64,000 bases of DNA from positions 26,043 through 90,042 of the forward strand of contig JAIYDW010000062.1 of assembly GCA_027487315.1 (NCBI GenBank), written 5' to 3'. The notes under the pieces are model-generated. The model saw only the letters and a list, made by a program, of their open reading frames with translations, made no database searches and was not told the DNA's origin. The DNA comes from Verrucomicrobiaceae bacterium. GTDB lineage: Bacteria > Verrucomicrobiota > Verrucomicrobiia > Verrucomicrobiales > Verrucomicrobiaceae. Made by a program: the position numbers and the translations under genes. Below, in pieces: positions 32,546 through 57,270 of the stretch (positions are counted from its first letter, which is position 1; every line of letters begins with the position of its first letter).

Positions 32546-33448
32546 TCAAGCGAAGGACTCTTCTTCGATGCCGAGGAGAGCGATGATGCGATTGAGGTCT
32601 TCGACGCCGTAGTAGTCGATCTCGATGCGGCCTTTTTTGTCGGAGTGATGGAGGCTGACGTTGGTGTTGAGGTGGCTGACGAGTTTTTGTTCGACGGCTT
32701 CGATGGCGGTGCCGAATTCGGTGTCGGCGACTTCGGGTTTGGGTGGCGGGGGATTGAGGACGCCCTGGACGAGTTTTTCGGTGGCGCGGACGGAGAGGCC
32801 TTTTTTGATGACTTCGGCAGCGGCTTTTTCCTGTTCTTTGGGCTTTTTGAGGCTGAGGAGGACTTTGGCGTGGCCGGTGGTGAGGCTGCCTTTGGCGAGA
32901 AAGTCCTGGACCTCCATGGGCAGGTCGAGAAGGCGCATGGAGTTGGCGACGGTGGCGCGGTTGCGGCCGACGCGCTGGGCGATGTCCTCCTGGCGCATGG
33001 CGAAGTCGCGGGCGAGGCGCTCGTAGGCGCGGGCTTCTTCGATGGGGTTGAGATCTTCGCGCTGAAGGTTCTCGATGAGGGCCATCTCGAGGACCTCTTT
33101 GTCGGTGGCTTCGCGGGTGATGACGGGGACTTCGGTGAGGCCTAATTCGCGTGAGGCGCGGAAGCGGCGTTCGCCAGCGATGAGTTCGAGTTTGCCGTTA
33201 ACGGGGCGGACGATGAGGGGCTGGATGACGCCGTGCTCACGGATGGACTCCATGAGTTCGGTGAGCTGAGCGGCGACGAATTCTTTGCGCGGTTGCAGCG
33301 GGCTGGGGACAATTTGCGCGAGAGGGACGCGGCGAACGATATCGCCGGGGGCGGGTTGCGCGAGGGCAGGCGGACGCGCGACGCCTGAGACGGCGGGTGA
33401 GGAGGTGATGAGGGCTCCTAGCCCTTTGCCGAGTACGTTCTTTGCCAT
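32546..33448 (-). CDS. parB: Chromosome partitioning protein ParB/Spo0J
   Basis: ParB box LIAGERRFRASREL (the GERRxRA CTP-binding motif), an HTH region and a C-terminal dimerisation segment. Confidence 0.9.
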   Translation of the reverse strand: MAKNVLGKGLGALITSSPAVSGVARPPALAQPAPGDIVRRVPLAQIVPSPLQPRKEFVAAQLTELMESIREHGVIQPLIVRPVNGKLELIAGERRFRASRELGLTEVPVITREATDKEVLEMALIENLQREDLNPIEEARAYERLARDFAMRQEDIAQRVGRNRATVANSMRLLDLPMEVQDFLAKGSLTTGHAKVLLSLKKPKEQEKAAAEVIKKGLSVRATEKLVQGVLNPPPPKPEVADTEFGTAIEAVEQKLVSHLNTNVSLHHSDKKGRIEIDYYGVEDLNRIIALLGIEEESFA

Positions 33449-33519
33449 GGGAGGCGGAGACTAACCACGAGGCGGGTTGGAAGCAAATACGGAATTGAAG
33501 TGAATTTGATTCGAGTGAG

Positions 33520-35844
33520 CTAGATGAGGCGCTGGCGTTTGCGGAGGAGCCATTCGGTGGTGAGGAGGGCGAGGAGGATGCCGAACCACCACCAGGAGGA
33601 CCAGATGAGGGTTTCTTTGATGGAGGTTTGTTTGCGGTCGATGCGTTTGAGGAGGGCGGGGAGGTCGTTGGCTTGGGATTCGCGGAGGAATTGGCCGCCG
33701 GTGGTTTGGGCGAGGGATTGTAATAGGGGGGTGTTGAGGGTGAGTTGGGCGAGTTCCTGGTCTTCGCGGTCGGAGGCGCGGAAGGTGAGGCGGGAGTCGC
33801 TGCGGGGGGCGTTGAGTGCGGGGGCGATGGCGATTTCGAAGTCGCCAGATTTGAGGGGCGGGGTGAGGGCGCGATAGATGCCGGCGTGGTTGGGGTCGGC
33901 GGTGAGTTCGAGGGTAGCGAGGGTTTCGCCATCGCGGGTGAGGAAGGCCTGGGGGGTGGCGTTGGGGATGAGGGTGCCGGAGGGGCTGCGGAGGCGGACG
34001 CGGACTTCGGCCTGGTCGCCGACACGGTAGCGGAGGCGGTCGGTGCCGATGGCGAGGGTGGCGGTTTCGATTTGGAAGGGGGGAGCGGCGATCCAGGCGG
34101 CGATTTGCATCCAGAGGCGCTGGTGGTAGAGGTCGGCGACCTGGTAGCGCCAGCGCCAGAGTTCGTCGGTGCTGAGGTAGAGGACGGCGCCGGCGCCAGC
34201 GGGGCGGAAGACGATGGCGGGGAGGGGTTGGCCGATGGCGGGGGCTTTCAGTTGGGCGACGACTTGGGCGCCGGGGGCGGGGGTGACGTGGGCGGTCCAC
34301 TGGGCGGGGGGAAGGGTTGGCCAGAGGTCGGTGTTGGTGGCGCGGGAGGCGGAGAGGAGGAGGGCGGGAGGGGTGGGGATGGGGGTGTCGAGGGACCAGG
34401 TGTAGCCGGTGGCGGTGGGCGGGGTGGTGCCGGTCCAGGAGACGGGGAGGAGGCGGGAGGCGTCTTTTTGGGTGAGCCAGGGTTTGAGGTGGCCGCGCTG
34501 GCCGTCGATGAAGATGAGGCCGCCGCCGCGTTGTTCGACGAATTCGAGGAGCCACTCGATTTGGTTGGGGAGGAGGCGGTCGGGGGCGAGGTCGCCGAGG
34601 ATGATGAGGTCGTAGGTGAGGCATTCGTCGCGGGTGGCGGGGAAGGCTTTGGCGATGGCGCCGTCGGCGGGGTTGGGGGTGTAGTCGTCGAAAGCGACCT
34701 TGGCGTCCCAGCGTTCGTCGCGGTCGAAGTGGTTGTGGATGTAGCGGGTTTCCCAGCGGGGGCGGCCGTCGAGGATGAGGACGCGGCGTTTGCGATCGAG
34801 GACGTGGAGGGGGATTTCGGTGGTGTTGTTGGCGCGGGTTTTCTCGAGATTGGCTTGGTTTCCGGAGGCGGTGACCTGGACGGAGAGGAGGCGGAGGGCG
34901 GGGTCGGTTTTTTGGGCGGCGGGAGGGAGGTCCTGGACGGGGAAGCGGAAATCGAAGCGGTGCTGGCCTTTTCCTGTGGTGGTGAAAGACTGTGACCAGA
35001 GGACTTTACCTTGGCTTTCTACGCGAACGGTGGCGGAAATGCCGGAGGGCATGGAATCGCGAACGGTGATGCTGCCGCGGAGTTGTTCCTGGGCGAAAGC
35101 GGATTCCGGGATGTCGGTTTGGGTAATGGAGAGGTCGGGTGGGGGGATTTCGCCGCCGAGGCCGATGGGGAAGAGGGTGACGCCGGCGGTTTTGAGGGAG
35201 GCGGCGAGGTCTTCGGGGGAGCCGTCGGTGTTGTGCTGGCCGTCGGTGAAGAGGACGACGGCGGTGCCGGGGGTGAGGGGGGCGAGGGCGGTTTTGAGGG
35301 GGGAGTCGAGGTTGGTGGAGGCGGAGTCGGGGGCGATGGGGAGTTGGGCGGGGATGGGGCCGGAGGTGTCCTGGCCGTTTTGGCGGCGCCACCAGAGGCG
35401 CTGGGAGGTGGAGCCGCGGAGGGCGACGAGTTCGACGTCGTGCTCGGCGACGAGGGCGGGGAGGAGTGGGATGGTGCCGGAGAAGAGGAGGGATTGGAGG
35501 CGATCCCATCTTGATTGCGGATTGGGGATTGCGGATTGCGGATTGGGAGAGGCCTGCGGCGGCTCGTCGGTGAGGCGCATGGAGGAGGAGGCGTCGAGGG
35601 CGAGGACGACCCGGGTGAGTTGGCGGTCGATGGTGGTGTGGCGGAGAACGGGGCCGGCGAAGGTGAGGACGGCGATGAAGACGGCGAGGGAGCGGAGGAG
35701 GACGAGGAGCCAGCCGAGGGGGACGGGGCTGCGGCGGATTTCGCGGCGGTAGAGGAGGGCCATGAGCAGGGCCAGGGCGAGCGCGACGAGGAGGACCAGC
35801 CAGGGGGCGTGGTCTCCGGTGAAGCGCAGGGCGGTGGTGGTCAT
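33520..35844 (-). CDS. Membrane-anchored vWA (MIDAS) protein with a GATase1-like C-terminal domain (BatB-like)
   Basis: N-terminal TM pair. MIDAS motif LALDASSSM. Later RRVLILDGRPRWE...YDLIILGD...GGGLIFIDG. A C-terminal TM is present. Contains the in-frame heptamer array listed below. Confidence 0.75.
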   Translation of the reverse strand: MTTTALRFTGDHAPWLVLLVALALALLMALLYRREIRRSPVPLGWLLVLLRSLAVFIAVLTFAGPVLRHTTIDRQLTRVVLALDASSSMRLTDEPPQASPNPQSAIPNPQSRWDRLQSLLFSGTIPLLPALVAEHDVELVALRGSTSQRLWWRRQNGQDTSGPIPAQLPIAPDSASTNLDSPLKTALAPLTPGTAVVLFTDGQHNTDGSPEDLAASLKTAGVTLFPIGLGGEIPPPDLSITQTDIPESAFAQEQLRGSITVRDSMPSGISATVRVESQGKVLWSQSFTTTGKGQHRFDFRFPVQDLPPAAQKTDPALRLLSVQVTASGNQANLEKTRANNTTEIPLHVLDRKRRVLILDGRPRWETRYIHNHFDRDERWDAKVAFDDYTPNPADGAIAKAFPATRDECLTYDLIILGDLAPDRLLPNQIEWLLEFVEQRGGGLIFIDGQRGHLKPWLTQKDASRLLPVSWTGTTPPTATGYTWSLDTPIPTPPALLLSASRATNTDLWPTLPPAQWTAHVTPAPGAQVVAQLKAPAIGQPLPAIVFRPAGAGAVLYLSTDELWRWRYQVADLYHQRLWMQIAAWIAAPPFQIETATLAIGTDRLRYRVGDQAEVRVRLRSPSGTLIPNATPQAFLTRDGETLATLELTADPNHAGIYRALTPPLKSGDFEIAIAPALNAPRSDSRLTFRASDREDQELAQLTLNTPLLQSLAQTTGGQFLRESQANDLPALLKRIDRKQTSIKETLIWSSWWWFGILLALLTTEWLLRKRQRLI
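35513..35548. repeat. Five tandem heptamers (GATTGCG/GATTGGG, plus-strand reading) inside the vWA CDS
   Basis: gATTGCGG ATTGGGG ATTGCGG ATTGCGG ATTGGGA, read directly. It translates on the minus strand as PNPQSAIPNPQS. Confidence 0.9.
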
Positions 35845-35847
35845 GTC

Positions 35848-35884
35848 GATTGCGGAATGCGGATTTGGGATTGCGGATTTTTTG
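35848..35884. repeat. Heptamer array GATTGCG GAATGCG GATTTGG GATTGCG GATTTTT abutting the start codon of the 33520-35844 gene
   Basis: Read directly. The 29-nt core at 35849-35877 is identical to 38364-38392. Confidence 0.9.
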
Positions 35885-35921
35885 GAGGGGGAAGGGTGGG
35901 GAGAGGGGAAGGGGCGAGCGA

Positions 35922-35956
35922 GGGTTTTTAATGATCGGCTAAAGCCTTTACTCCGA
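35922..35956. repeat. Copy 1 of the conserved spacer element GGGTTTTTAATGATCGGCTAAAGCCTTTACTCCGAC
   Basis: By hand alignment it is nearly identical to 44016-44050, differing at three positions. Both copies are preceded by a G-run tract and GGATTTTTTGG. Confidence 0.85.
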
Positions 35957-35962
35957 CGGGGG

Positions 35963-36187
35963 TTAGCGATACCAGACGACGGTGATGGCGGAGGTGGAGG
36001 AGTGGAAGGTTTGGATGTTGACGATGTCTATGCCGGGGTTGGCGTTGATCCAGGTTTCGGCTTGGTCGTGGGATTCTTTGATCATGGGGTAGTCGAGTGA
36101 GACTTCGCCGAGGCGGAATTTGAGTTGCTTGATGAATTCGGCGCGGCGGATTGGGCGATGCGTTGGGAGTGGGGGCGGTGTGTCCAT
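35963..36187 (-). CDS. Hypothetical 74-aa protein, translationally coupled to the upstream BatA-domain gene
   Basis: ATG at 36187 sits 2 nt after the TGA of the 36190-38358 gene (TGACCATG). Its C-ending codon usage matches neighbouring minus-strand genes. Sequence: MDTPPPLPTHRPIRRAEFIKQLKFRLGEVSLDYPMIKESHDQAETWINANPGIDIVNIQTFHSSTSAITVVWYR. No family recognised. Confidence 0.5.
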   Translation of the reverse strand: MDTPPPLPTHRPIRRAEFIKQLKFRLGEVSLDYPMIKESHDQAETWINANPGIDIVNIQTFHSSTSAITVVWYR

Positions 36188-36189
36188 GG

Positions 36190-38358
36190 TCAACGGCGTT
36201 TGGGGGAGGTGATGTGTTGTTGGAGGAGGACTTCGAAGAAGAGGAGGGCTAGGAGGGCGAGGAGGAGGGGTTGCCAGACTTCGATGCCGAGTCGGCGGGA
36301 GCGGTCGAGGCGCTGGTAGGTGTCGAAGTCGTTGGCGGTTTGGGCTCCGAGGCGGGTGGCGAGGTCGGTGAGTTCGGTGGGGGCGAGGGGGGTGAGGTTG
36401 GATTCGGCGGGGTCGAGGTTGGCGGCGATGCGACGGATGGATTTGGGGTCGGATGGGGCGGCGTCGGTGGGTTGGATTTGGTAGAGGCCGGGCTGGGTGA
36501 GGGCGGGGAGGGTAAGGGTGGCGGACTCGGGTTTGAGTTCGGAGGATTGGCCGAGGGGGTCGGTGAGGGTGAATGGTTGGGTGGATTGAGAACTGGTGAG
36601 GGAGAGGGAGGGGGTGGTGCCGATGAGGTGGGCGCTGCTTTCGGTGTCCTGGGTGGCGAGCCAGGCGGTGAGGCGTTGGGCGAGGGGGACGAACCAGGGC
36701 TGGAGGGGGAGGTTTGACCAGCCGGGTTTGAGGGGGATGGCGCTTTGGATGACGAGGCCGCGTCCGAGGGGGCGTTCGATGAGGAGGGGGACGCCGCGGT
36801 CGAGGGAGGCGATGGTGCGGGCGTCGTCACCCTGGGGTTCGAGTTTCCACCAGTGCTGGAATTCGCCATCAGGGAGGCGGCCGGAGCGGGGGTCGTTGAA
36901 GTATAGGAGGGCGGGGTGGGTGAAGCGGGTGGTTTGGAGGCGGGCGGGGAAATCGATGTTTTCGATGTGGGTTTGGCCGGTGACTTTGGCGGGCAGGAAA
37001 AGGCCTTCTTTGCCGAGGTCGGATCGCCATTTGAGCGGGTCGGCGTTTTCGGCTGGGAGGATGAGCAGGCCGCCGCCGTTTTCGACGAATTTGCGGAGGA
37101 TGGGGAAGAGGCTGCCGTTGGAGCGTTCGAGGCCGCCGAGGATGACGACCCGGGCACCGGCGAGATCGGATTCCTTGAGGCGTTTCGGGTCGATGGTGCG
37201 AGTGAGGATGAGGTCGCGGAGGGAGGGGACGGAAGCGCCGAGGTGGGGGGTGAGGGCGAGGTTGAAGAAGTCGAGGGCACCGGCGAGGGGGGAGGAGCCG
37301 GGGGCGCCATCGAGGAGGACGACGGGGAGTTGGTCGCGGACTTGGACGATGGTGTGGAAGGCATTGTCGTCGGTAAAGGTATCGCCTTCGAGGCGGACGG
37401 TGAGGGCGTGGTCGCCGAGGGAGTCGAAGGCGTGGGTGAAGTAGAGGGAGGCTTCGCCATCCGGGGGGATGGAGATGCGGGCGGTGCGGAGGCGTGCGCC
37501 ATCGGCTTCGAGGTGGACGGGGATGTCCTGCCAGGGGCGTTTGCCGTGGTTTTGGATGCGGACTTTGAGGGCGACTGGTTGGCTGGTGGCGACGAGTTGG
37601 GCGGAGAGTTCGGCGGCGGTGATGGCGAGGTTTTCGCTGAGTTGGGTGGGGAGTTGGAAGAGGGTGAGGGCGGGGCGGGTGGCGTCGGGGTCTTTGGAGG
37701 TGAGCGCGTCGAGGACGGGTAGGGAGGCGCCGGAGAGGAGGGAGGACCAGTCGGACTTTTGGAAGTCGGAGAGGATGAGGATTTCTTTGGAGGGGTTTCC
37801 GGCTTTTTGGGCGGCGGCGAGGGCGGATTGGAGGCTGTTTTGCAGGGAGACGGGGCCTTGGACGGCGGGGATGTCGGTGAGGTCGGCGGAGAGGAGGTCG
37901 AGGGTGGTGGAGGGGGCGGTGTTGAGGGGGCGGGGGGTGCCGCCGATGCGGATGATTTGGGCGTCGGAGCCGCGCGGGAGGGAGGCGAGGATGCGGGAGA
38001 GATCGGCGCGGGCGTGGTCGGAGGCGGGGGTGCCGTCGGCGGTGGGGGCGCGCATGGAGAAGGAGTCATCGAGGAGGACGATGAGGGAGGATTTGCCGAA
38101 GCCGGGGAGTTGGCTGAGGGCGTTGAGGACGGGGCGGGCGAGGCAGAGCGCGAGGACGATGGGGATGGCGATGCGGGTGAGGAGGAGGAGCCACTGCTCG
38201 ATCTGCGTGCGGCGTTTTTTTTGTTTGAGGACCTCATGGAGGAGGTGCATGGCGCCCCATTGGACGTGGATGATCCGCCTGCGGTTCAGGAGGTGGATGA
38301 TCAGAGGGATCAGGAAGGCGGCGGCGCCGGCCAGGAGGATGGGGGTGAGGAAGGACAA
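36190..38358 (-). CDS. BatA_N (aerotolerance-regulator N-terminal, double-TM) / vWA-like / GATase1-like membrane protein
   Basis: (TTG)SFLTPILLAGAAAFLIPLIIHLLNRRR is a classical BatA N-terminus. It also has LIVLLDDSFSM (DxSxS), ARVVILGGLE...GGGLLILP and a C-terminal TM. Confidence 0.8.
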   Translation of the reverse strand: MSFLTPILLAGAAAFLIPLIIHLLNRRRIIHVQWGAMHLLHEVLKQKKRRTQIEQWLLLLTRIAIPIVLALCLARPVLNALSQLPGFGKSSLIVLLDDSFSMRAPTADGTPASDHARADLSRILASLPRGSDAQIIRIGGTPRPLNTAPSTTLDLLSADLTDIPAVQGPVSLQNSLQSALAAAQKAGNPSKEILILSDFQKSDWSSLLSGASLPVLDALTSKDPDATRPALTLFQLPTQLSENLAITAAELSAQLVATSQPVALKVRIQNHGKRPWQDIPVHLEADGARLRTARISIPPDGEASLYFTHAFDSLGDHALTVRLEGDTFTDDNAFHTIVQVRDQLPVVLLDGAPGSSPLAGALDFFNLALTPHLGASVPSLRDLILTRTIDPKRLKESDLAGARVVILGGLERSNGSLFPILRKFVENGGGLLILPAENADPLKWRSDLGKEGLFLPAKVTGQTHIENIDFPARLQTTRFTHPALLYFNDPRSGRLPDGEFQHWWKLEPQGDDARTIASLDRGVPLLIERPLGRGLVIQSAIPLKPGWSNLPLQPWFVPLAQRLTAWLATQDTESSAHLIGTTPSLSLTSSQSTQPFTLTDPLGQSSELKPESATLTLPALTQPGLYQIQPTDAAPSDPKSIRRIAANLDPAESNLTPLAPTELTDLATRLGAQTANDFDTYQRLDRSRRLGIEVWQPLLLALLALLFFEVLLQQHITSPKRR

Positions 38359-38361
38359 CTC

Positions 38362-38397
38362 GAATTGCGGAATGCGGATTTGGGATTGCGGAATTTA
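38362..38397. repeat. Heptamer array GAATTGCG GAATGCG GATTTGG GATTGCG GAATTTA filling the DUF58-BatA spacer
   Basis: Read directly. The 29-nt core at 38364-38392 is identical to 35849-35877. Confidence 0.9.
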
Positions 38398-38403
38398 GGG
38401 GAG

Positions 38404-39297
38404 TTAGCGCATGCGGAGGGTGAGGTATTGGCGGAGGGCGGTGGCGTGGGATTGGTCGGTGGGGAGTTGGAGGAGATCGACTTGGTGTTTGCGGAGGCCT
38501 TCGGTGATTTGTTGGCGGAAGTCGGCGAGGACTTCGAGGTAGCGGTTGCGGACGGTGGCGGGGTCGAGGGCGACGTGGTCTTCGGCGTTTTCGAGGTTTT
38601 CGAAGCGGGCGAAGCGGGAAAAGGGGAACTCCAACTCGTCGCGGTCCCAGAGTTGGAGGACGACGACTTCCTGGCCCTGGTGGCGGAGGACGCCAACGGC
38701 TTTGAGGAGGGCGGTGGCGTCGTCGAAGAAGTCGGAGATGAGGATGACGAGGCCGCGGCGTTTGAGGTGGTTGCCGAGAGATTCGATGACCGGAGCGAGC
38801 GCGGTTTCACCACCGGGTTTGGTTTGGATCATGGTCTCCAGCATGAGGTGGAGATGGGAGATTTTGGTGCGGTTGGGGATGATCTGGCGGAGCTTGGTGT
38901 CGAAGGTGATCAAGCCGACGGCGTCCTGTTGGGACATGAGCAGGTAAGCGAGGGAGGCGGCGAGTTTGCGGGCGTAGTCGAGTTTCAGGACACCGCCGGT
39001 GCCGCGATAGCCCATGGAGCCGGAGGTATCGAGAACGATGGTGGCGCGGAGGTTGGTTTCCTCGTCGTATTCGCGGATGTAGAAGCGGTCGGAGCGGCCG
39101 AAGATTTTCCAGTCGAGGCGGCGGATTTCATCGCCTTGGACGTAGGGGCGGTGTTGGCGGAATTCGACGGAGAAGCCCTTGTGGGGAGAGGCGTGGAGGC
39201 CGGTGGTGAAGCCTTCGACGACGGTTCGGGCGAAGAGTTGCAGGTGCTGCAGGCTGGTGATGTCTTCGCTTTGAAGGATGTCGGAAAGGGTGGCCAC
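38404..39297 (-). CDS. DUF58 domain protein
   Basis: ...GLHASPHKGFSVEFRQHRPYVQGDEIRRLDWKIFGRSDRFYIREYDEETN...VLDTSGSM. GTG start at 39297. Confidence 0.88.
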   Translation of the reverse strand: MATLSDILQSEDITSLQHLQLFARTVVEGFTTGLHASPHKGFSVEFRQHRPYVQGDEIRRLDWKIFGRSDRFYIREYDEETNLRATIVLDTSGSMGYRGTGGVLKLDYARKLAASLAYLLMSQQDAVGLITFDTKLRQIIPNRTKISHLHLMLETMIQTKPGGETALAPVIESLGNHLKRRGLVILISDFFDDATALLKAVGVLRHQGQEVVVLQLWDRDELEFPFSRFARFENLENAEDHVALDPATVRNRYLEVLADFRQQITEGLRKHQVDLLQLPTDQSHATALRQYLTLRMR

Positions 39298-39382
39298 TCG
39301 GGAGAAATGAAAAGGGGGAGAGAGTTAGACGTGGGGAGAGTCAGGGAGCTTTCAGGGGGATGGTGTCGGATGCAAGAGTTGT

Positions 39383-39425
39383 GAAAAAAGAAACGCCCGC
39401 GCAGCGCGGGGCTGGGCGGGCGTTT
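39383..39425 (-). terminator. Rho-independent terminator after ilvC
   Basis: 10-bp stem AAACGCCCGC / GCGGGCGTTT (39391-39400 / 39416-39425). On the minus strand it is followed by CTTTTTTC. Confidence 0.75.
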
Positions 39426-39451
39426 GAGGGAGTCGCTGCCGACGAGGATGT

Positions 39452-40480
39452 TTACTCGTAGGAGGCTTGGCTGCCGCTGAGGTCGCGCTGTTTGATCCAG
39501 GACATCAGGCCGCGCAGGTGTTTGCCGGTTTCCTCGATGGGGTGAGCGGCTTCTTCCTTGCGGATGCGGTTGAAGTTGGGCTGGCCGGCGTTGTACTCGG
39601 CGGTCCATTCGCGGGCGAAGTCGCCGTCTTGAATGGCCTTGAGTTGCTTGCGCATGGCGTTCTTGACGTCTTCGGTGATGATTTTCGGGCCGACGGTGAC
39701 GTCGCCGTACTCAGCGGTTTCGGAGATGGAGAAGCGCATGCCGGCGATGCCGGATTCGAACATGAGGTCGACGATGAGCTTCAATTCGTGCAAGCACTCG
39801 AAGTAAGCCATTTCGGGCTGATAACCGGCTTCGACGAGGACTTCGAAGCCTGCCTTGACGAGGGCGGAAGCGCCGCCGCAGAGGACGCACTGTTCGCCGA
39901 AGAGGTCGGTTTCGGTTTCTTCTTTGAAGTCGGTCTCGAACACACCGCCGCGGGTGCCGCCGATGCCTTTGGCCCAAGCGAGCGCAATTTCTTTGGCGTT
40001 GCCAGAAGCGTCATTGTGGACGGCGATGAGAGTGGGGACGCCTTTGCCTTCGAGGTATTGGCGACGGACGAGGTGGCCGGGGCCTTTCGGGGCGACCATG
40101 ATGACGTTCACGTTTGTGGGAGCCGTGATGGTCTTGAAGTGAACGGCGAAGCCGTGGGAGAAAAGGAGGGTCTTTCCTGGGGTGAGGTGAGGGGCGATAT
40201 CGGCCTCATACACTTTGGGGATGACGGTGTCAGGGACAGCGACCATGATGACGTCGGCTTTTTTGACGGCTTCGGCGGTGTCGAGCACTTCGAGGCCGCG
40301 TTCGGCAGCGGAGGCGCGGCTTTTGGAGCCGGGGTAGAGGCCGACGATGACCTGGATGCCGCTTTCTTTGAGGTTGAGGGCGTGAGCGTGGCCTTGGGAG
40401 CCGAAGCCGATCACGGCGCAAATTTTACCTTCCAGCGCTGCTGTGCTGGCTTCACTATCTGTAATCACTTTGGCTGCCAT
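39452..40480 (-). CDS. ilvC: Ketol-acid reductoisomerase
   Basis: Trimmed to ATG 40480: [10 protein letters not shown]...[23 protein letters not shown]..., class I KARI length. Confidence 0.95.
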
Positions 40481-40707
40481 GGGGATGTCTGTATTTTTGG
40501 TTAGAGGGGCGGGATCATGGCGCACCATGGGGGAGGGGTCAAACGGGTTTTTCCTGGGTTTGAGGGTCATATCCGTCTTTAGGCGGATGTGGCAAGGTTG
40601 ATGCTTGCGTTTGAGGGGTCGATCCGGTTTAACTGGCGGCGACTGGAAACTGGGCAGAATCGGATCTGCTAAGGAACTAGGCATTAACCTCAAATGAACT
40701 GAAAATT

Positions 40708-41088
40708 ATGAATGAAGATGCAATGAACACAGCAGCAGCGCAGGGCGGATCCATGATCGGTGGGCTCATTGGTTTGGCCATTTTGGTGTTTCTCATCGCG
40801 GCGATGTGGAAGGTCTTTACCAAGGCTGGGAAGGCGGGGTGGTTGGTGTTGATTCCCATTGTCAGTTTTTATCAAATGCTCAAGATCGCGGGGCGTCCGG
40901 GTTGGTGGTTGATTCTTATGATCATTCCGCTGGTGAATTTCATCATCTGGATTTTAGTGTCGATGGACATTGCCAAGTCGTTTGGCAAGGGTGCGGGATT
41001 TGGATTGGGGTTGGCGTTCTTGAGCCCCATTTTTTTCTCAATTCTGGGCTTTGGCAGTGCGACCTACAAGGGGCCTGCGGCGGCGTAA
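40708..41088 (+). CDS. DUF5684-like small membrane protein
   Basis: WKVFTKAGKAGWLVLIPIVSFYQMLKIAGRPGWWLILMIIPLVNFI matches the family pattern as I recall it. The start could be an internal Met. Confidence 0.6.
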   Translation: MNEDAMNTAAAQGGSMIGGLIGLAILVFLIAAMWKVFTKAGKAGWLVLIPIVSFYQMLKIAGRPGWWLILMIIPLVNFIIWILVSMDIAKSFGKGAGFGLGLAFLSPIFFSILGFGSATYKGPAAA

Positions 41089-41147: not shown

Positions 41148-42108
41148 ATTTCTTGAGGGTGGCGATGAGGAAGTCGGCCATGGAGGGGTGGGTGACGTTG
41201 GGGGCGTTGGGGTAGACGAGTTCGCAGGAGGTGCCGAGGGCTTGGCAGTGTTCCTGGAGTTTGACGCCGTAGTTGGAGGTGTGGGTGGGGTCGCGCTGGG
41301 GTTTGCCGATGGCGGGGGTGTCGGTGTAGATGAGATAGACGGGGGGATCGTCTTTGCTGACGTGTTCGTAGGGGGAGTATTGTTTGATGAAGGGCAGGAC
41401 GGAGTCGCGCTTTTCGAGGAACTCGGCGAAGCGGGTGTCGCGGGTTTTGCGGTCGTTGGGGTCCATGAAGCCGAAGGCGTGGCCGCCGTATTTGCTGTTG
41501 GGGGTCCACTCGATGAGTTGTTTGGGGTCGAGAGAGGTTTGGGCTCCACTGACGGCGGCGCAGGTGAGGCGGGTGGACTCGCGGGCGATGGGGTCGGCGG
41601 AGGCGGGGTCGGCCATGTCGTCATGGAAGGCGAGGTAGAGGCTGGAGCAGGCTCCGGCGGAACCGCCGCTGGCGGCGATGCGGTTTTTGTCGATCTTCCA
41701 TTCGGCGGCTTTGCTGCGGACGAACTGGAGGGCGCGGGCGGCGTCTTCGAGGGGCCATTTGACGGGCGGGGTGATGCCTTCGAGGTGGGCCTGCCAGGAG
41801 TAGCGGTAGTTGATGGCGACGACGGAGATGCCAGCGGCGAGGCAGGGGTCGAGCAGGCCGATGCCGACTTTGTCACCAGAGACCCAGCCGCCGCCGTGGA
41901 TGTAGAAGAGGACGGGGGTGGGAGTGGGGGAATCGGCGCGGTAGAAGTCGAGGACTTGGCGTTCGTGGGTGCCGTAGGGGATGTTGGCGAGGGTGGGGGG
42001 GCGCTGGGGTTTGGGCGCGGGTTTTGGGGTGGGTGTTGGCGCGGGAGCTGGGGTTTGGGCTTGGAGCGCGAGGGTGAGGAGGGGGATGAGGAGGAGGGAG
42101 CGTTTCAT
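41146..42108 (-). CDS. Secreted alpha/beta hydrolase (esterase/lipase, fold-3 type)
   Basis: Signal peptide, oxyanion motif HGGGW and nucleophile elbow GGSAG. Its start overlaps the sulfatase stop (ATGA). Confidence 0.8.
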   Translation of the reverse strand: MKRSLLLIPLLTLALQAQTPAPAPTPTPKPAPKPQRPPTLANIPYGTHERQVLDFYRADSPTPTPVLFYIHGGGWVSGDKVGIGLLDPCLAAGISVVAINYRYSWQAHLEGITPPVKWPLEDAARALQFVRSKAAEWKIDKNRIAASGGSAGACSSLYLAFHDDMADPASADPIARESTRLTCAAVSGAQTSLDPKQLIEWTPNSKYGGHAFGFMDPNDRKTRDTRFAEFLEKRDSVLPFIKQYSPYEHVSKDDPPVYLIYTDTPAIGKPQRDPTHTSNYGVKLQEHCQALGTSCELVYPNAPNVTHPSMADFLIATLKK

Positions 42109-43895
42109 GGGAGGAGAGTGAGGGTGACGCGGCGGAGGTCCATGACGGAGTGGCCGGGGATGCTGAGGGCACGGAGGGTGAGGGGGGCCTGGCCGGAGGG
42201 GAGGGTGATTTTGCCGAGGTTGAGGGAGGCGAAGTCCTTCATGGTGCTTTCGCCATCGGGACGTGGGAGGGTGTCTTGATTGGTGTAGAGGGGTGGGTCC
42301 CAGAAGGGGGTGACGAGGCCGGAGAGTTTGGCGTCTTTGAAGCTGAGTTCGATGGTGGAGCCGGCGTCGGCTTCGGGGCAGGTGTAGTCGATGGTGACTT
42401 CGTAGGTGCCGGCGGTTTTGACATCGAGGAGCCAGACGAGACTGTCGTCTTTGCTGGTCCAGTTGACGAAGTAGGAGCAGTTGGGGGCGTTGCTGCTGCG
42501 TTTGACGGTGCCGCGTGGTTCGCCGTCGCGGGCGGGGAGCATGGTGATGGGGAACTCGGGGTAGCCGGTGGGGATGGGGCGCTGGTCGACGGCATTGCCG
42601 CCGCCGGTTTTTTTGCCGGGTTTGCCTTTGGCGGTTTGGGGGGAGCTGGGGGTGCCGAGGACTTCGGTTTTCCAGTTGGCGACGGCTTGCTGGAGTTGGG
42701 CGGCGAGTTCGGGGGCTTTGTCGTTGACGGGGATGGTTTGGCCGGGGTCGTTGACCATGTCGTAGAGGTTGCCCTGGCTATCGAGGCGATGGGTTTGGGT
42801 GCGTGCGGAGACGGCGGGGCCCCAGGTGGAGAAGAGGGTGCGGTCGGGCCAGTCGGTTTGTTGGTTTTTGAGGAGAGGGGAGAGGTCGCGGCCGTCGAGG
42901 GGTTTGTCGCCGACACGGGGAACGCTGGTGAGGGCGAGCAGGGTGGGGAGGAGGTCGATGGCGCCGGCGATTTGGGTGACGGTGCGGCCTTGGGGGAGTT
43001 GGGCGGGCCAGGAGATGTAGCAGACGGAGCGGATGCCGCCTTCGTCGGTCTGGCCTTTTTTGCCTTTCATGCCACCGGTCCAGCGATTGGTGTTGGGGCC
43101 GTTGTCGGAGAAGTAAACGACGATGGTGTTTTCGGAGAGGTTGTATTGTTTGAGGCGGTCGAGGACGCGGCCGACATTGCGGTCCTGGTTTTCGAGCATG
43201 GCGTAGGCGCAGCGGGTTTGTTCGGGGACTTCCTGGGCGGGTTGGGTGGCGGGTTGGGTGATGGGTTTGTCTTTGAAGCGGGCCCAGTCGGACTCGGGGG
43301 CGGCCCAGGGGGAGTGGGGGGTGGTGAAGGGGATGTAGCAGAGGAAGGGTTTGTTTTTGCTGCGGTCGATGAACTCGAGGGCGCGGTCGGTGCAGACATC
43401 GACGATGTAGCCTTTGGTGCGGATCATTTTGCCTTTGTCTTCGAGGGGGGCGTCGAAGTATTCGCCCCAATGGCCGGAGGTGTGGCCGAAGTATTCGTCG
43501 AAGCCGCGTGCCATGGGGTGGTAGGGCCATTGGGAACCGTTGTGCCATTTGCCGAAGGCACCGGTGGCGTAACCGGCGGCTTTGAGGGCGTCGGGGAGGG
43601 TTTTTTCGTCGAGGTTGAGTCGTTCCTGGCCGGTGGAGACGCCTTTGACGCCGCCTCGGGGGTGGTAGCGGCCGGTGAGGAACTCGGCGCGGGTGGGGGA
43701 ACAGACGGGGCAGACGAAGAAGCGGTCGAGGGAGACGCCGGCTTTGGCGATGGAGTCGATGTTGGGGGTGGCGAGTTGGGTGTTGCCGGAGAAGCTGTAG
43801 TCACCCCAGCCGGCGTCGTCGGCGAGGAAGATGACGAGGTTGGGGGGGGCGGCTTGGAGGGTGGTGGTGAGGAGGAAGAGGAGGAGGAAGCGCAT
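42105..43895 (-). CDS. Secreted sulfatase (formylglycine type) with a C-terminal beta-sandwich (CBM-like) extension
   Basis: This is the real gene within the artefactual 1633-aa track ORF: MRFLLLFLLTTTLQAAPPNLVIFLADDAGWGD...CPVCSPTRAEFLTGR (the C-x-P-x-R FGly motif). ATG at 43895. Confidence 0.88.
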   Translation of the reverse strand: MRFLLLFLLTTTLQAAPPNLVIFLADDAGWGDYSFSGNTQLATPNIDSIAKAGVSLDRFFVCPVCSPTRAEFLTGRYHPRGGVKGVSTGQERLNLDEKTLPDALKAAGYATGAFGKWHNGSQWPYHPMARGFDEYFGHTSGHWGEYFDAPLEDKGKMIRTKGYIVDVCTDRALEFIDRSKNKPFLCYIPFTTPHSPWAAPESDWARFKDKPITQPATQPAQEVPEQTRCAYAMLENQDRNVGRVLDRLKQYNLSENTIVVYFSDNGPNTNRWTGGMKGKKGQTDEGGIRSVCYISWPAQLPQGRTVTQIAGAIDLLPTLLALTSVPRVGDKPLDGRDLSPLLKNQQTDWPDRTLFSTWGPAVSARTQTHRLDSQGNLYDMVNDPGQTIPVNDKAPELAAQLQQAVANWKTEVLGTPSSPQTAKGKPGKKTGGGNAVDQRPIPTGYPEFPITMLPARDGEPRGTVKRSSNAPNCSYFVNWTSKDDSLVWLLDVKTAGTYEVTIDYTCPEADAGSTIELSFKDAKLSGLVTPFWDPPLYTNQDTLPRPDGESTMKDFASLNLGKITLPSGQAPLTLRALSIPGHSVMDLRRVTLTLLP

Positions 43896-43926
43896 GGGCG
43901 GGCGGAGGGTTGTGGGCGGGCGGAGG

Positions 43927-43976
43927 GGGATTTGACAGGATTTACAGGATTTTGGGGGATTAACGGGATTTTTTGG
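43927..43976. repeat. Helically phased GGATT(T) array (five units) upstream of the sulfatase gene
   Basis: GGAT starts at 43928, 43938, 43947, 43957 and 43966 (spacing 10, 9, 10, 9), each followed by a T-tract. The 17-nt GGATTAACGGGATTTTT (43957-43973) is identical to 57254-57270. Confidence 0.9.
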
Positions 43977-44015
43977 GGTGGGGTAAGGGAGAGGGGGATG
44001 GGAATGGGCGGGCGG

Positions 44016-44050
44016 GGGTTTTAATGATCGGCTAAAGCCTTGACTCCAAC
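44016..44050. repeat. Copy 2 of the conserved spacer element GGGGTTTTAATGATCGGCTAAAGCCTTGACTCCAAC
   Basis: See copy 1 at 35922-35956. Confidence 0.85.
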
Positions 44051-44104
44051 TTTGCGGACGGGGTGGGAGGGGTTGGGGGAGGGGCGGTTTTTGGGGACGA
44101 GGGG

Positions 44105-45613
44105 TTAGTTTTGGGATTGGGGGATGTTGGGGATGGGGAGGGGGAAGGTGGGGTTTGGGGCGACTTCGCGGAGGAGGATGGCTTCGGCTTGTTTGATGAG
44201 GTCGGGGTGGGTGGAGGCGAGGTCGGTGGCTTCGGAGGGGTCGGTGTCGAGGTTGTAGACTTCCCAGGGGCCGGGGGTTTTGTTTTTGGTTTTGAGGTTT
44301 TGGCGGACCAGTTTCATGGGGCCGATGCGGACGGCGAGCTGGCCGCCGTATTCGGGGAAGACCCAGAGCATGGGTTGGGAGCGGTCTTTGAGGGGAGTGC
44401 CGGTGGTGAGGGTGGGCCAGAGGCTTTCGCCATCGAGGTTTTCGGGTTTGGGGATGCCGGTGGCATCGCAGAGGGTGGGGAACCAGTCGGCGAAGTAGCC
44501 GGGGGAGTTGTTGGTGGTGTTGGCGGGGATTTTGCCGGGGAGTTTGGCGATGGTGGGGACGCGGAGGCCGCCTTCGTAGACGCTGCCTTTGTAACCTCGG
44601 AGGCCGGCGGTGCTGTTGAAGAAGGCGGGGTCGGCGCCGCCGATGTGGAAGTGGGTGGTGGCCGGGCCGGGGTGGGTGGTGCCGTTGTCGCTGGAGAAGA
44701 TGATGAGGGTGCGGTCGGTGAGGCCTTGCTGCTCGAGTTTGGCGATGACGCGGCCGACGTAGCTGTCGAGGTCGCTGATCATAGCGGCGTAGCCGGCGTG
44801 GGGTCGGGGGTGAGGGATGTAACCGGACTGGCCACGGTAGGGTTCGGTGTCCCAGTCGGCGGGGAATTTGTCGACGGAGGCTTTGGGGGGATGCATGGAG
44901 ACGTGGGGTTCGATGAAGGCGAGGTAGAGGAAGAAGGGGTTCGATTTTTGGGCTTCGATGAAGGACTCGGCCTCGTTGATCATGAGCGAGGGGGCGTAGG
45001 TTTGGCCGATCCAGTCTTCGAGTTTGACATCGCCGGTGACGGGTTTGGCATGGCCGGGGATGGGATTTTGGTTGAGGATGATTTTCTCGTTGTTGCGCCA
45101 GAGGTAGGGGGGGTAGTAGCTGTGGGCGACGGCTTGGCAGTTGTAGCCGAAGAAGAGGTCGAAGCCTTTGCGGTTGGGGTCGCCGGTGCTGCAAACGGGG
45201 CCGAGGCCCCACTTGCCGATGGCGGCGGTGTGGTAGCCGGCTTGTTTGAAGGCCATGGCGAGGGTGAAGGCATTTTCGGAGAGGGGGTGCTGGCCTTCGG
45301 TGTATTTGGCGGGGTCGACTTTTTCCATGGCGCGGTTGCCGCGGACTTCGGCGTGGCCGAGGTGTTTGCCGGTCATGAGGACGCAGCGGGAGGGGGCGCA
45401 GACGGGGGCGCCGGAGTAGTGTTGGGTGAAGCGGGTGCCGGAGGCGGCGAGGGCGTCGAGATTCGGGGTGGGGATCTTTTTCTGACCGAAGGCGCCGACT
45501 TCGCCCCAGCCGAGGTCGTCGGCGAGGATGAGGATGACGTTGGTTTTTTCCTCGGCGGTGACGCTCAGGGCGAGGAGGGCGGCGGAGAGGAGGAGGGGAA
45601 GGAGACGGGGCAT
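44105..45613 (-). CDS. Secreted arylsulfatase-family enzyme (formylglycine type)
   Basis: Signal peptide, then ILILADDLGWGE...PVCAPSRCVLMTGK (C-x-P-x-R). 502 aa. Confidence 0.9.
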   Translation of the reverse strand: MPRLLPLLLSAALLALSVTAEEKTNVILILADDLGWGEVGAFGQKKIPTPNLDALAASGTRFTQHYSGAPVCAPSRCVLMTGKHLGHAEVRGNRAMEKVDPAKYTEGQHPLSENAFTLAMAFKQAGYHTAAIGKWGLGPVCSTGDPNRKGFDLFFGYNCQAVAHSYYPPYLWRNNEKIILNQNPIPGHAKPVTGDVKLEDWIGQTYAPSLMINEAESFIEAQKSNPFFLYLAFIEPHVSMHPPKASVDKFPADWDTEPYRGQSGYIPHPRPHAGYAAMISDLDSYVGRVIAKLEQQGLTDRTLIIFSSDNGTTHPGPATTHFHIGGADPAFFNSTAGLRGYKGSVYEGGLRVPTIAKLPGKIPANTTNNSPGYFADWFPTLCDATGIPKPENLDGESLWPTLTTGTPLKDRSQPMLWVFPEYGGQLAVRIGPMKLVRQNLKTKNKTPGPWEVYNLDTDPSEATDLASTHPDLIKQAEAILLREVAPNPTFPLPIPNIPQSQN

Positions 45614-45794
45614 GGTGGGGCCAAGGCGCGGGTTGGGGCAGTGGTAACAGTGTGGGAGGGGTGGACCTTTCGGGGGGAATGCGGTTTGTGACGGGAAACG
45701 GAGTGAAACAAGATGGAAAGGTGGTTGTGAAAGCGTTGAGTAGGACCATGCTGGGGGCTTCGTCCACGGCAGCTTTCAACGCGTTCCTTCCTTC

Positions 45795-46274
45795 ATGTCG
45801 ATCCCTTTTGTTCGCTACAAACACGCCCGGTTTTCGGCCCGGTTTCCGGAGCCGTTTCGCTATTCGAAATCGCACTATTGGATGGCTCCTGTTGAAGGTG
45901 AGGAGGGGGTGTGGCGGGTGGGGTTCACGAAGTTTGCGACGCGGATGCTGGGGGAGTTGGTGGACTGTGAGTGGAAGCCGGAGGTGGGAGGTCGCGTGGG
46001 GGTGGGGGATACGATTGGGTCGGTGGAGGGGTTCAAGGCGGCGTCCGATGTTTACTGTGTGATGGAGGGGGCGTTTCACGGTGGGAATCCGTATTTGCAG
46101 CAGGATGCGTGTGTGGTGCGGACGGATCCTTATGAGGTGGGTTGGTTGTATGCGGTGAAGGGGGAGCCGGAGGCGGAGAGTTTGGATGTGCATGGGTACA
46201 TCGCGTACTTGGATGGGACGATTCGGCGGATGGCGGAGGAGGGGCATGGGGAGGAAGGGAGTGAGGAGGAGTAG
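45795..46274 (+). CDS. Glycine-cleavage H-protein-like (lipoyl-carrier fold) protein
   Basis: YSKSHYWM...VGFTKFATRMLGELV...GDTIGSVEGFKAASDVYCV resembles GcvH, including the candidate lipoyl-Lys context (E-x-x-K-A-A-S-D). No gcvT or gcvP is nearby. Confidence 0.7.
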   Translation: MSIPFVRYKHARFSARFPEPFRYSKSHYWMAPVEGEEGVWRVGFTKFATRMLGELVDCEWKPEVGGRVGVGDTIGSVEGFKAASDVYCVMEGAFHGGNPYLQQDACVVRTDPYEVGWLYAVKGEPEAESLDVHGYIAYLDGTIRRMAEEGHGEEGSEEE

Positions 46275-46343
46275 AGAGGGGGGAGTGGGGAGGAACGTTG
46301 AACGGGGGTTGACTGGGGTGGGGGTGTGGGGCGTAGTTGGGGG

Positions 46344-47126
46344 ATGAGACAATTTGCTTTTGTGGGGATGATTTGTTTGATGGGTGGGATGACGGCGATG
46401 GGGGCGTTGGTGGAGAAGGTGGTGGAGTATTCGGTGGGGGAGGTGGTGTGTGAGGGGTTTCATGCTTTTGATGATGCGGTGGCGGGGAAGCGGCCGGGGA
46501 TTTTGATTGTGCATCAGTGGACGGGGCTGACGGATTACGAGAAGATGCGGGCGCGGATGCTGGTGGAGCTGGGTTACAATGTGTTTGCGTTGGATGTTTA
46601 TGGGAAGGGTGTGAGGCCGCCGGGTCCGCCGGCTTCGGCGCAGGAGGCGGGGAAGTATAAGGGGGATCGGGCGTTGTATCGTGAGCGGTTGAATGCGGGG
46701 CTGGCGGTGTTGATGAAGGATGAGCGGACGGATGCGGGCAAGGTGATGGCGATTGGCTACTGCTTTGGGGGCACTGGGGTGTTGGAACTGGCGAGGAGTG
46801 GGGCGAAGATTGCCGGGGTGGTGAGCTTTCATGGTGGGTTGGATTCGCCTTCGCCTGCGGATGGGAAGAACATTCAGGGGGAGGTGCTGGTGCTGCACGG
46901 GGATGCGGATCCGTTTGTGCCGGCGGCGGATATTGCGGCGTTTGAGAAGGAACTGCAGGATGCGAAGGTGAACTACCATTTGGTGCGGTATCCGGGGGCG
47001 GTGCATGCTTTCACGCAGAAGATGGCGGGGAATGATCCTTCGAAGGGAGCGGCGTATGATGAGAAGGCGGACAAGGCTTCGTGGGTGGAGATGAAGAGTT
47101 TTTTTGATCGGGTGTTCGGAAAGTGA
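46344..47126 (+). CDS. Dienelactone hydrolase family protein
   Basis: ILIVHQWTGL..., nucleophile motif GYCFGG, ...VLHGDADPFV...HAF. Confidence 0.85.
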   Translation: MRQFAFVGMICLMGGMTAMGALVEKVVEYSVGEVVCEGFHAFDDAVAGKRPGILIVHQWTGLTDYEKMRARMLVELGYNVFALDVYGKGVRPPGPPASAQEAGKYKGDRALYRERLNAGLAVLMKDERTDAGKVMAIGYCFGGTGVLELARSGAKIAGVVSFHGGLDSPSPADGKNIQGEVLVLHGDADPFVPAADIAAFEKELQDAKVNYHLVRYPGAVHAFTQKMAGNDPSKGAAYDEKADKASWVEMKSFFDRVFGK

Positions 47127-56155: not shown

Positions 56156-56197
56156 TGAAGGAAAGAGATTGAGGATTGAGAGATGGTAGCGAGATGC

Positions 56198-57217
56198 TTA
56201 GAATTGGCGGAGGAAGCGGAGGTCGTTTTCGATGAGGTGGCGGATGTCGGTGATGCCGTGGAGGATCATGGCGAGGCGGTCGAGGCCGAGGCCGAAGGCG
56301 AAGCCGGTGATTTCGGTGGGGTCGAAGAGGGTGTCTTTGCGGCTTTGACTGACGGCTTCGAAGACGGCGGGATCGACCATGCCGCAGCCGGCGATTTCGA
56401 TCCAGCGATCCTCTTTGCCTTTGGCTTCGAGTTTGACGTCGATTTCGAAACTGGGTTCGGTGAAGGGGAAGAAGTGGGGGCGGAAACGGACGGCGGTTTT
56501 GGGGCCGAAGATTTCGCGGAAGAAGTATTCGAGGGTACCCTTCAAGTCGGCGAGGGAGACGTCTTTGTCGACGTAGAGGCCTTCGAGTTGATTGAAGACG
56601 GAGAGGTGGGTGGCGTCGATTTCATCGCGCCGGTAAGCGGCTCCGGGGGCGATGATGCGGACGGGGAGTTCTTTGGCGGATTCCATGGTGCGAATCTGCA
56701 CGCTTGAGGTGTGGGTGCGGAGGAGGCGACCGTCGTTGAGGTAGAAGGTGTCGCTCTCGTTGCGGGCGGGGTGATCGGCTGGGGTGTTGAGGGCGTCGAA
56801 ACAGTGCCATTCGGTCTCGACTTCGGGGCCTTCGGCGAGGGCGAAGCCCATGCGGCGCAGGGTGGTGATGGCGAGGTGGCGGATCTGGGTGAGGGGGTGA
56901 AGAGAGCCGATGCCGAGGCCTGGGCGGCCGGGGAGGGTGATGTCGAGTCCGGAGACGGAAGCGGCGTCTTTGGTGGCTTGGAAAGCGAGCTGGCGGGAGG
57001 TGATGCCATCGGTGATGGCGGTGCGGACTTCATTGAGTTTGGCGCCGACGTCTTTTTTGAGGTCGGGGGGGACATCCTTCATGCCCGAGCTGAGGGCGGT
57101 GAGCTTGCCTTTTTTGCCGAGGAAGTCGATGCGGAGGGCTTCGAGGGCGGACTCGTCGGAGGCGGCCTCGAGGGCGGCGAGGGCTTCGGTGTGGAGGGAG
57201 GTGAGGTCGGAGAGCAT
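56198..57217 (-). CDS. pheS: Phenylalanine--tRNA ligase alpha subunit
   Basis: 339 aa with class II core motifs (...FRPHFFPFTEPS..., GCGMVDP). Confidence 0.95.
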   Translation of the reverse strand: MLSDLTSLHTEALAALEAASDESALEALRIDFLGKKGKLTALSSGMKDVPPDLKKDVGAKLNEVRTAITDGITSRQLAFQATKDAASVSGLDITLPGRPGLGIGSLHPLTQIRHLAITTLRRMGFALAEGPEVETEWHCFDALNTPADHPARNESDTFYLNDGRLLRTHTSSVQIRTMESAKELPVRIIAPGAAYRRDEIDATHLSVFNQLEGLYVDKDVSLADLKGTLEYFFREIFGPKTAVRFRPHFFPFTEPSFEIDVKLEAKGKEDRWIEIAGCGMVDPAVFEAVSQSRKDTLFDPTEITGFAFGLGLDRLAMILHGITDIRHLIENDLRFLRQF

Positions 57218-57233: not shown

Positions 57234-57270
57234 ACAGGATTGACAGGATTTGAGGATTAACGGGATTTTT
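57234..57270. repeat. Phased GGATT array (four units) 14-55 nt upstream of the pheS start
   Basis: GGAT starts at 57237, 57246, 57254 and 57263. It shares a 17-nt identity with 43957-43973. Confidence 0.9.

Follow-up and report, generated by a model that had tools for sequence, protein, structure and literature searches.

A four-unit heptanucleotide repeat abuts the start codons of two neighbouring vWA-domain genes in a Verrucomicrobiaceae bacterium

Results

Gene neighbourhood

We analysed a 64-kb stretch of Verrucomicrobiaceae DNA (64,000 nucleotides; hereafter the window). The neighbourhood of interest lies entirely on the minus strand and comprises ilvC, a DUF58 gene, a BatA_N/vWA gene, a 74-aa ORF, a second membrane vWA gene and parB. 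Two identical 29-nt sequences, copies A and B, occupy the leaders of the two vWA genes, here called sites A and B:

38404–39297, minus strand: DUF58 gene, upstream of copy B
38364–38392, minus strand: copy B, identical to copy A
36190–38358, minus strand: 722-aa BatA_N + vWA gene with a TTG start, downstream of copy B
35963–36187, minus strand: 74-aa ORF between the two vWA genes, in a stretch without homologue in the relatives L120 and L121
35849–35877, minus strand: copy A, sense TCCGC AATCCCA AATCCGC ATTCCGC AAT, four heptad units
33520–35844, minus strand: 774-aa membrane vWA-domain gene, downstream of copy A

Both start codons are supported by homology. Homologues of the 774-aa protein all begin MTTTALRF, in support of the ATG at 35844. 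For the 722-aa protein, the alignment to Pfam BatA starts at residue 1, in support of the TTG at 38358; relatives carry GTG or TTG at the equivalent codon. The two downstream proteins are unrelated to each other (BLASTP E=0.55); an earlier first-pass annotation of this DNA had proposed this for their N-termini. Between 35400 and 39800, the only terminator-like sites on the minus strand are overlapping ones at 39393–39410, after ilvC and upstream of DUF58, and a sigma-70 promoter scan of the same interval gave no hits. Because of a terminator-like hairpin at 39396–39410, the DUF58 gene is probably the first of its transcription unit, and since such sites occur nowhere else on that strand of the interval, the arrays probably lie within one transcript.

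The spacer between the two vWA genes (35845–36193) is non-homologous among genomes that are ~97% identical in the flanking genes. It measures 348 nt in the window, 128 nt in L120 (763–890) and ~350 nt of different sequence in L121 (973–1322). In L126, a 76-aa gene is called at the position of the 74-aa ORF, and the DNA aligns across the stretch. The spacer also holds one copy of a dispersed element, GGAGT(A/C)AAGGCTTTAGCCGATCATTAAAA, found on the minus strand at 35926–35954 and 44019–44047 and followed by a ~40-nt C-rich tract and then by AATCC-type repeats. This element precedes two unrelated genes of the window as well as the vWA gene in L121 and L122, and is missing from L120. It could be a mobile or promoter-bearing cassette; an Rfam search of the copy at 35926–35954, the only one within the searched region, gave no hit.

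Two identical four-unit arrays

The sequence ATTGCGGAATGCGGATTTGGGATTGCGGA is present exactly twice in the 64-kb window, at 35849–35877 and 38364–38392, with no further match at up to three mismatches and an expectation of 0 in shuffled sequence. The first-pass annotation had reported the same two base-for-base copies, and our exact-match search agrees. On the sense strand, 4 nt (CGAC) separate the end of copy A from the ATG at 35844, and 5 nt (TCGAG) separate that of copy B from the TTG at 38358; these gaps, also reported earlier, were verified by position. Copy B begins 11 nt past the DUF58 stop and, as previously described, takes up most of the 45-nt DUF58–BatA spacer. Identity between the copies ends where the array ends.

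Tandem Repeats Finder returned period 7 at 35513–35545, 35848–35880 and 38366–38394, which bears out the heptad organization read from the letters in the first pass. On the G-rich strand, the units of the two copies are GCGGATT, GCGGAAT and TGGGATT, with AATCCGC as the sense unit. The 29-mer is a four-unit heptanucleotide simple-sequence repeat of the GGATT-core class. We detected no self-complementarity within the 29-mer and no inverted copy of it in the 64-kb window. Nor does the window hold a complementary G-arm on the sense strand, all 11 of 11 ATTGCGGA octamers being on the plus strand. A CRISPR array was rejected: only two copies exist, set 2515 nt from each other and separated by genes, rather than 28–37-nt repeats with unique spacers.

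A coding array and related repeats

The window contains a third heptad array and three leaders with related AATCC-core repeats:

35513–35545, minus strand: third array, AATCCGC AATCCGC AATCCCC AATCCGC AATC, in frame inside the 33520–35844 vWA gene
43928–43970, minus strand: AATCC-core repeat AAAAAATCCCGTTAATCCCCCAAAATCCTGTAAATCCTGTCAAATCC, period 9–10 nt, 32 nt upstream of the sulfatase start at 43896
56165–56179, minus strand: two-unit heptad TCAATCC TCAATCT C, 9 nt upstream of the ATG at 56155
57237–57267, minus strand: AATCC-core repeat AATCCCGTTAATCCTCAAATCCTGTCAATCC, 20 nt upstream of the ATG at 57217

The third array codes for PNPQSAIPNPQS within a hypervariable loop right after the MIDAS motif DASSS, and this loop is the most variable stretch in a protein alignment of the 774-aa homologues. 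One homologue of 78% identity (L202) has AILNPKSQILNPKS in the loop, encoded by a seven-unit AATCCYA array, and other homologues carry unrelated residues there. The unit type of the 56165–56179 heptad recurs as (CAATCTC)5 before the vWA gene of L202.

The repeat at 43928–43970 falls within a 1633-aa ORF (42105–47006, minus strand) that is an artefact of the stop-poor, C-rich strand. Its sulfatase domain begins at residue 1055, and translation from 43896 would open with MRFLLLFLL, a signal-peptide-like start. The true sulfatase gene is ~597 aa long, and the DNA upstream of its start at 43896 is intergenic.

Rapid turnover and copying between leaders

By its homologues, the organism belongs to Verrucomicrobiales; metagenomic relatives show 99%, 95%, 91%, 89% and 85% protein identity, and Prosthecobacter ~55%. 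The contents of the two leaders in relatives are as follows:

Site A, L120 (~97% DNA identity in flanking genes): no 29-mer; another repeat, AATCC(C/T)G
Site A, L121 (~97% DNA identity): AAAAAATCCGCATTCCGCAATCACCATG, the window sequence less exactly 14 nt, two units
Site A, L122 (89% protein identity): AATCC(T/C)G repeat of the L120 type
Site A, L202 (78% protein identity): (CAATCTC)5, ending 6 nt before the ATG
Site A, L203 (76% protein identity): no repeat
Site B, L145 (96.8% DNA identity over 3.2 kb): exact 29-mer kept
Site B, L124 (1419–1447; DUF58 protein 98% identity): (CCT)n where the contig ends
Site B, L125 (2306–2385; DUF58 protein 94% identity): ATCCTG-type repeats, period 9–10 nt
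Site B, L126 (DUF58 protein 91% identity): no repeat

As judged from these alignments, arrays of the GCGGATT/AATCCGC kind arise and change length in seven-base steps. The first-pass annotation had named absence from orthologous Bat loci of close relatives as evidence that would count against its reading, and among the site B relatives only L145 retains the 29-mer. The DUF58–BatA spacer repeatedly holds different simple repeats in different relatives. Contigs of relatives tend to stop at array spacers, and that of L145 ends just past the BatA stop.

One further relative contig (L176/L155) carries AATCCGCAATCCCAAATCCGCATTCCGCAAT, a 29–31-mer in the unit order of the window, followed by CCCA and the ATG of argS. 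This contig, which stems from the sample that yielded L145, has the same extreme strand composition. Given how often each unit occurs in 162 arrays from other genomes, among the matches listed, the unit order of the 29-mer has a probability of ~6e-4, which argues that the copies derive from one another rather than from independent slippage. On the sequences compared, a single four-unit variant has dispersed to at least three unrelated leaders in this lineage, including that of the housekeeping gene argS.

Tabulating distances to start codons, as the first-pass annotation suggested, brought out a positional preference in the lineage: all three known intergenic copies of the 29-mer (copies A, B and argS) end 4–5 nt before a start codon. 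Across five clade leaders (site A, site B, argS, L121 and L202), the array ends 4–6 nt before the start.

The repeat class across phyla

A scan with TCCGCAATCCSMAATCCGCA, using one genome per species, yielded at least 119 loci, which the pattern itself selected. Hosts among the matches listed include Acidobacteriota, Planctomycetota, Verrucomicrobiota, Nitrospirota, Chloroflexota, Gemmatimonadota and others. Array length centred on four units: among 162 arrays in the matches listed, 41 had three units, 96 had four, 19 had five and 4 had six, under a pattern that demands at least three units and favours longer arrays up to about two-fold. The element is not specific to the Bat pair but belongs to a cross-phylum repeat class.

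An inverted partner accompanies 60 of 134 arrays (~45%) among the matches listed, with the polarity 5′-G-arm, loop, C-arm-3′; the opposite polarity was seen 3 times. The long hairpins (e.g. L011, L034, L106 and L198) have 28–35-nt heptad arms and loops of ~8–100 nt, and in many of them the two arms directly abut the stop codons of convergent genes. Their form recalls bidirectional terminators or REPIN-like elements, and we found no published description of them. One contig with a heptad hairpin, the Pyrinomonadaceae contig L017, also has a match to the Acido-Lenti-1 sRNA at 2852–2898 (46.8 bits; gathering threshold 37), which is unrelated to the heptad arrays.

Genes at these foreign loci were called with a home-made pooled codon-usage model, which is crude and gives approximate positions. 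With this rough caller, 58 of 116 usable arrays among the matches listed were intergenic and a further 17 sat at gene starts that were ambiguous; the caller put the remainder inside ORFs, many of which look over-extended. Single intergenic arrays were strongly polar: an ORF boundary lay within 20 nt of the G-strand 5′ end (the C-strand 3′ end) in 17 of 27 and on the other side in 0 of 27, counts that apply to the matches listed and to crude gene calls. Among the matches listed, the boundary at these 17 arrays was the stop of a convergent gene in 13 and a start in 4, a distribution that again sets the class apart from a device of the Bat genes. Arrays adjoining ATG-initiated ORFs were in the sense orientation 13 times and in the antisense control orientation 3 times among the matches listed from the genome sample, and only 4 versus 3 times among those from an independent metagenome sample. 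The cross-phylum enrichment at start codons is thus modest, being slight and not clearly repeated in the second sample.

The exact 29-mer occurs in at least 31 unrelated metagenome contigs with GC contents of 0.38–0.71, several times as a perfect hairpin. Horizontal spread of the 29-mer may lie behind this, but such recurrence could also arise by chance from few unit variants if the collection holds some tens of thousands of arrays. Rfam 15 gave no relevant match at E<=5 across 33000–41000, and none for the arrays of five hairpin-bearing loci. A full-text literature search for the AATCCGC/GCGGATT unit returned no description of it and no paper with the sequence.

Leader context

None of 15 minus-strand genes checked in the window has a GGAG, GAGG, AGGA, GGGG or AAGG tetramer at −20 to −4. 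Shine-Dalgarno (SD) sequences are therefore generally lacking on this strand, and their absence at copies A and B is not special. The first-pass annotation was correct that neither start has one. The sense strand of the 29-mer contains no GG dinucleotide. We rejected the 29-mer as an SD or extended SD, given its lack of complementarity to CCUCC, an anti-SD sequence that may not be the host's own. Pairing of AAUCC with GGAU just 5′ of the 16S anti-SD would be speculation; it would amount to 4 bp at most, and both window sites end in a truncated unit.

Predicted folding energies were −8.4 kcal/mol for the site A leader and −3.5 for the site B leader, with shuffle means of about −7, so that the array leaders are predicted to be weakly folded and not above shuffles. 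We also rejected the array as a −35/−10 promoter of a leaderless mRNA: inspected by hand, the hexamer matches are poor, and the transcription start would fall past the ATG.

Discussion

The closest published counterparts of the window arrays are the heptamer repeats surveyed by Rehm et al. 2015 (PMC4692102), GGGAATC in Xanthomonas and GGGGA(C/T)T in Nostoc. These prefer four units and are over-represented in non-coding DNA; their G-rich strand is the non-coding one in the 50 bp before an ORF or the coding one in the 50 bp past a stop. They form inverted pairs in Xanthomonas, vary strongly in length and sequence between close relatives, and have neither been associated with gene function nor been assigned a role (PMC4692102). 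Our arrays share the tandem heptamers, the GGA(A/T)T core, the four-unit preference and the non-coding bias. They also share the G-strand polarity, which both window copies obey, the occasional inverted pairs, and the same-site variation in length and sequence between close relatives, and likewise show no link to gene function. They differ in their unit, GCGGATT, which has only GG in three of four G-runs and no quadruplex predicted by ViennaRNA, and in their hosts, which are Verrucomicrobiota, Planctomycetota, Acidobacteriota and others rather than xanthomonads and cyanobacteria. They differ too in that one four-unit variant order has here spread over several leaders. The window motif therefore matches the class of Rehm 2015 in all tested respects except quadruplex-capable G-tracts. 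Since no quadruplex is predicted for GCGGATT units, the four-unit preference is seemingly independent of quadruplex formation.

A second counterpart is the TAACTGA heptamer described by MacGregor 2015 (PMC4679880), which lies a few nt before start codons in the SD-poor leaders of Beggiatoaceae and for which S1, Csp or CsrA-like binders were proposed. Like the window arrays, these repeats (2–6 copies) sit in sense orientation just upstream of starts and overlap the ribosome-binding site in leaders without a canonical SD. Both kinds also occur in ORFs and have a patchy cross-phylum distribution. Unlike TAACTGA, the unit here is AATCCGC, and many AATCCGC arrays adjoin stops or make long hairpins.

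The cyanobacterial STRR heptamers are further long simple repeats comparable to the window arrays. In the part of Mrazek et al. 2007 relayed in PMC4679880, heptanucleotides are the commonest long simple repeats of bacteria, are sporadic among genomes, and are put down to polymerase slippage. Unlike the present analysis, the Mrazek and STRR surveys treat the class statistically. Finally, the hairpin form found in other genomes is, like REP/REPIN elements mobilized by RAYT, an intergenic inverted doublet right after stops. The window copies are instead single-arm, non-palindromic and heptad-built, and we rejected them as REP/REPIN on three grounds: no self-complementarity, no GTAG or CGTC head, and no inverted copy in the window.

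We lean towards the view that the 29-mer is a fast-evolving heptad repeat that serves as a passive, SD-less leader, rather than a specific operator or a coordinator of the two Bat-like genes, and hold this with a little better than even confidence. Arrays would be generated through slippage and would spread between short repeats via gene conversion or template switching. Near start codons, only the orientation that places the G-poor strand in the mRNA would be tolerated, as it brings no SD-like or G-rich structure and would leave a weakly structured, SD-less leader like others on the strand. Once in place, the array would passively set the ribosome-binding region of both genes. Counting against a passive leader, the 4–6 nt spacing in the lineage is tighter than a merely tolerated repeat would need. 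Four units are also preferred where no quadruplex is predicted, so that array length may be set by something besides slippage or quadruplex formation, and the recurrence of one heptamer across phyla points to a possible sequence-specific constraint.

At the level of the locus, the tempting but unsupported reading as an operator of a Bat operon gives way to an element of a documented kind. In wider terms, a unit without a predicted quadruplex here shares the heptamer-repeat anatomy of four units, polar placement against ORF boundaries and fast turnover, and this anatomy reaches Verrucomicrobiota, Planctomycetota, Acidobacteriota and other phyla; the quadruplex account of the four-unit rule is weakened by the GCGGATT unit.

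The main alternative is an active role in initiation, which we consider unlikely. The array would be an SD-independent initiation element, a single-stranded, G-poor standby or landing site that positions or recruits the 30S subunit 4–6 nt upstream of the start, with ribosomal protein S1 or a Csp/KH-type RNA-binding protein as its binder. The 4–6 nt gap in five independent clade leaders fits this well, and the array spans the expected 30S contact region, where it would stand in for an SD in SD-less leaders, much as MacGregor 2015 (PMC4679880) proposed for TAACTGA repeats. The sense bias at ATG-ORFs points the same way in the genome sample (13 vs 3 among the matches listed) and is only 4 vs 3 in metagenomes. 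Because SDs are generally lacking on this strand, however, their absence at the arrays gives an initiation role no direct support, and most genes of the window initiate without any array. The arrays have no anti-SD complementarity, and at orthologous sites of ~97% DNA-identical relatives they are lost or replaced with no compensation seen. Single intergenic arrays also adjoin stops over starts (13 vs 4 among the matches listed). If arrays do affect initiation in SD-less genomes, they offer a simple handle on SD-independent translation.

A reading we judge quite improbable treats the arrays as recognition modules for a widely conserved factor that binds single-stranded nucleic acid and measures about four heptads (28–30 nt). 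Such a factor, if it exists, would explain why four units are preferred although they are unable to form quadruplexes, why one heptamer occurs in distant phyla, and why its polarity against starts and stops is fixed. The arrays would then mark a cross-phylum post-transcriptional control of translation start and, in the hairpin form, of 3′-end processing.

Slightly less probable still is a contingency (phase-variable) repeat, in which slippage would add or remove heptads, alter the leader length and so adjust or toggle expression of the envelope-associated vWA/BatA proteins. At site A, the window and L121 differ by two units (14 nt), as such a repeat would predict; membrane proteins are encoded downstream, and assemblies of relatives break at the spacers (L145 past the BatA stop, L124 in (CCT)n). 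Against it, the array has three variants in four units, an imperfection that lowers slippage, and it lies outside the coding frame and outside any recognizable promoter spacer. The same array also stands before the housekeeping gene argS, and Rehm 2015 (PMC4692102) deemed phase variation unlikely for analogous repeats.

We give very little weight to a role as a DNA structure, whereby a two-tetrad quadruplex on the G-rich template, or an i-motif on the C strand, would modulate transcription near the start. The 29-mer does have four G-runs (GG, GG, GGG and GG) with the G strand non-coding as in Rehm 2015 (PMC4692102), and the proposal has already been made for GGGNATC repeats. Two-G runs with loops of 4–5 nt form quadruplexes poorly, however, and ViennaRNA quadruplex energies, computed in silico with RNA parameters only, gave no quadruplex for the 29-mer or (GCGGAUU)4 and −30.6 kcal/mol for (GGGGAUU)4.

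The least probable reading, to which we assign next to no credence, is a specific operator or target that would co-regulate the two Bat-like genes, akin to the shared operator of the first pass and recognized either by a DNA-binding protein or by a trans-acting sRNA with a complementary GCGGAUU arm: identical sequence in two adjacent ribosome-binding regions and the complementary G-arms seen as hairpin partners in other genomes speak for it, but the 29–31-mer also precedes argS, is not conserved at orthologous Bat loci, has no complementary arm in the 64-kb window, and has a 7-bp period unlike that of typical dimeric operators.

The strand that carries these arrays is itself unusual in composition. 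GC skew is +0.36 over the whole 64-kb window and +0.22 to +0.54 per 2-kb bin, regardless of gene orientation. At third codon positions, five plus-strand genes verified by Pfam (LeuRS, a GT4 glycosyltransferase, GlgB, PBP1A and MreB) have a sense-strand skew of +0.38 to +0.62, and eight minus-strand genes one of −0.64 to −0.85. To our knowledge, this strand bias is far above any in bacterial chromosomes, and it looks like a strand-wide mutational bias. The skew is weaker in more distant relatives, at −0.25 in L125, −0.21 in L126 and −0.09 in L127.
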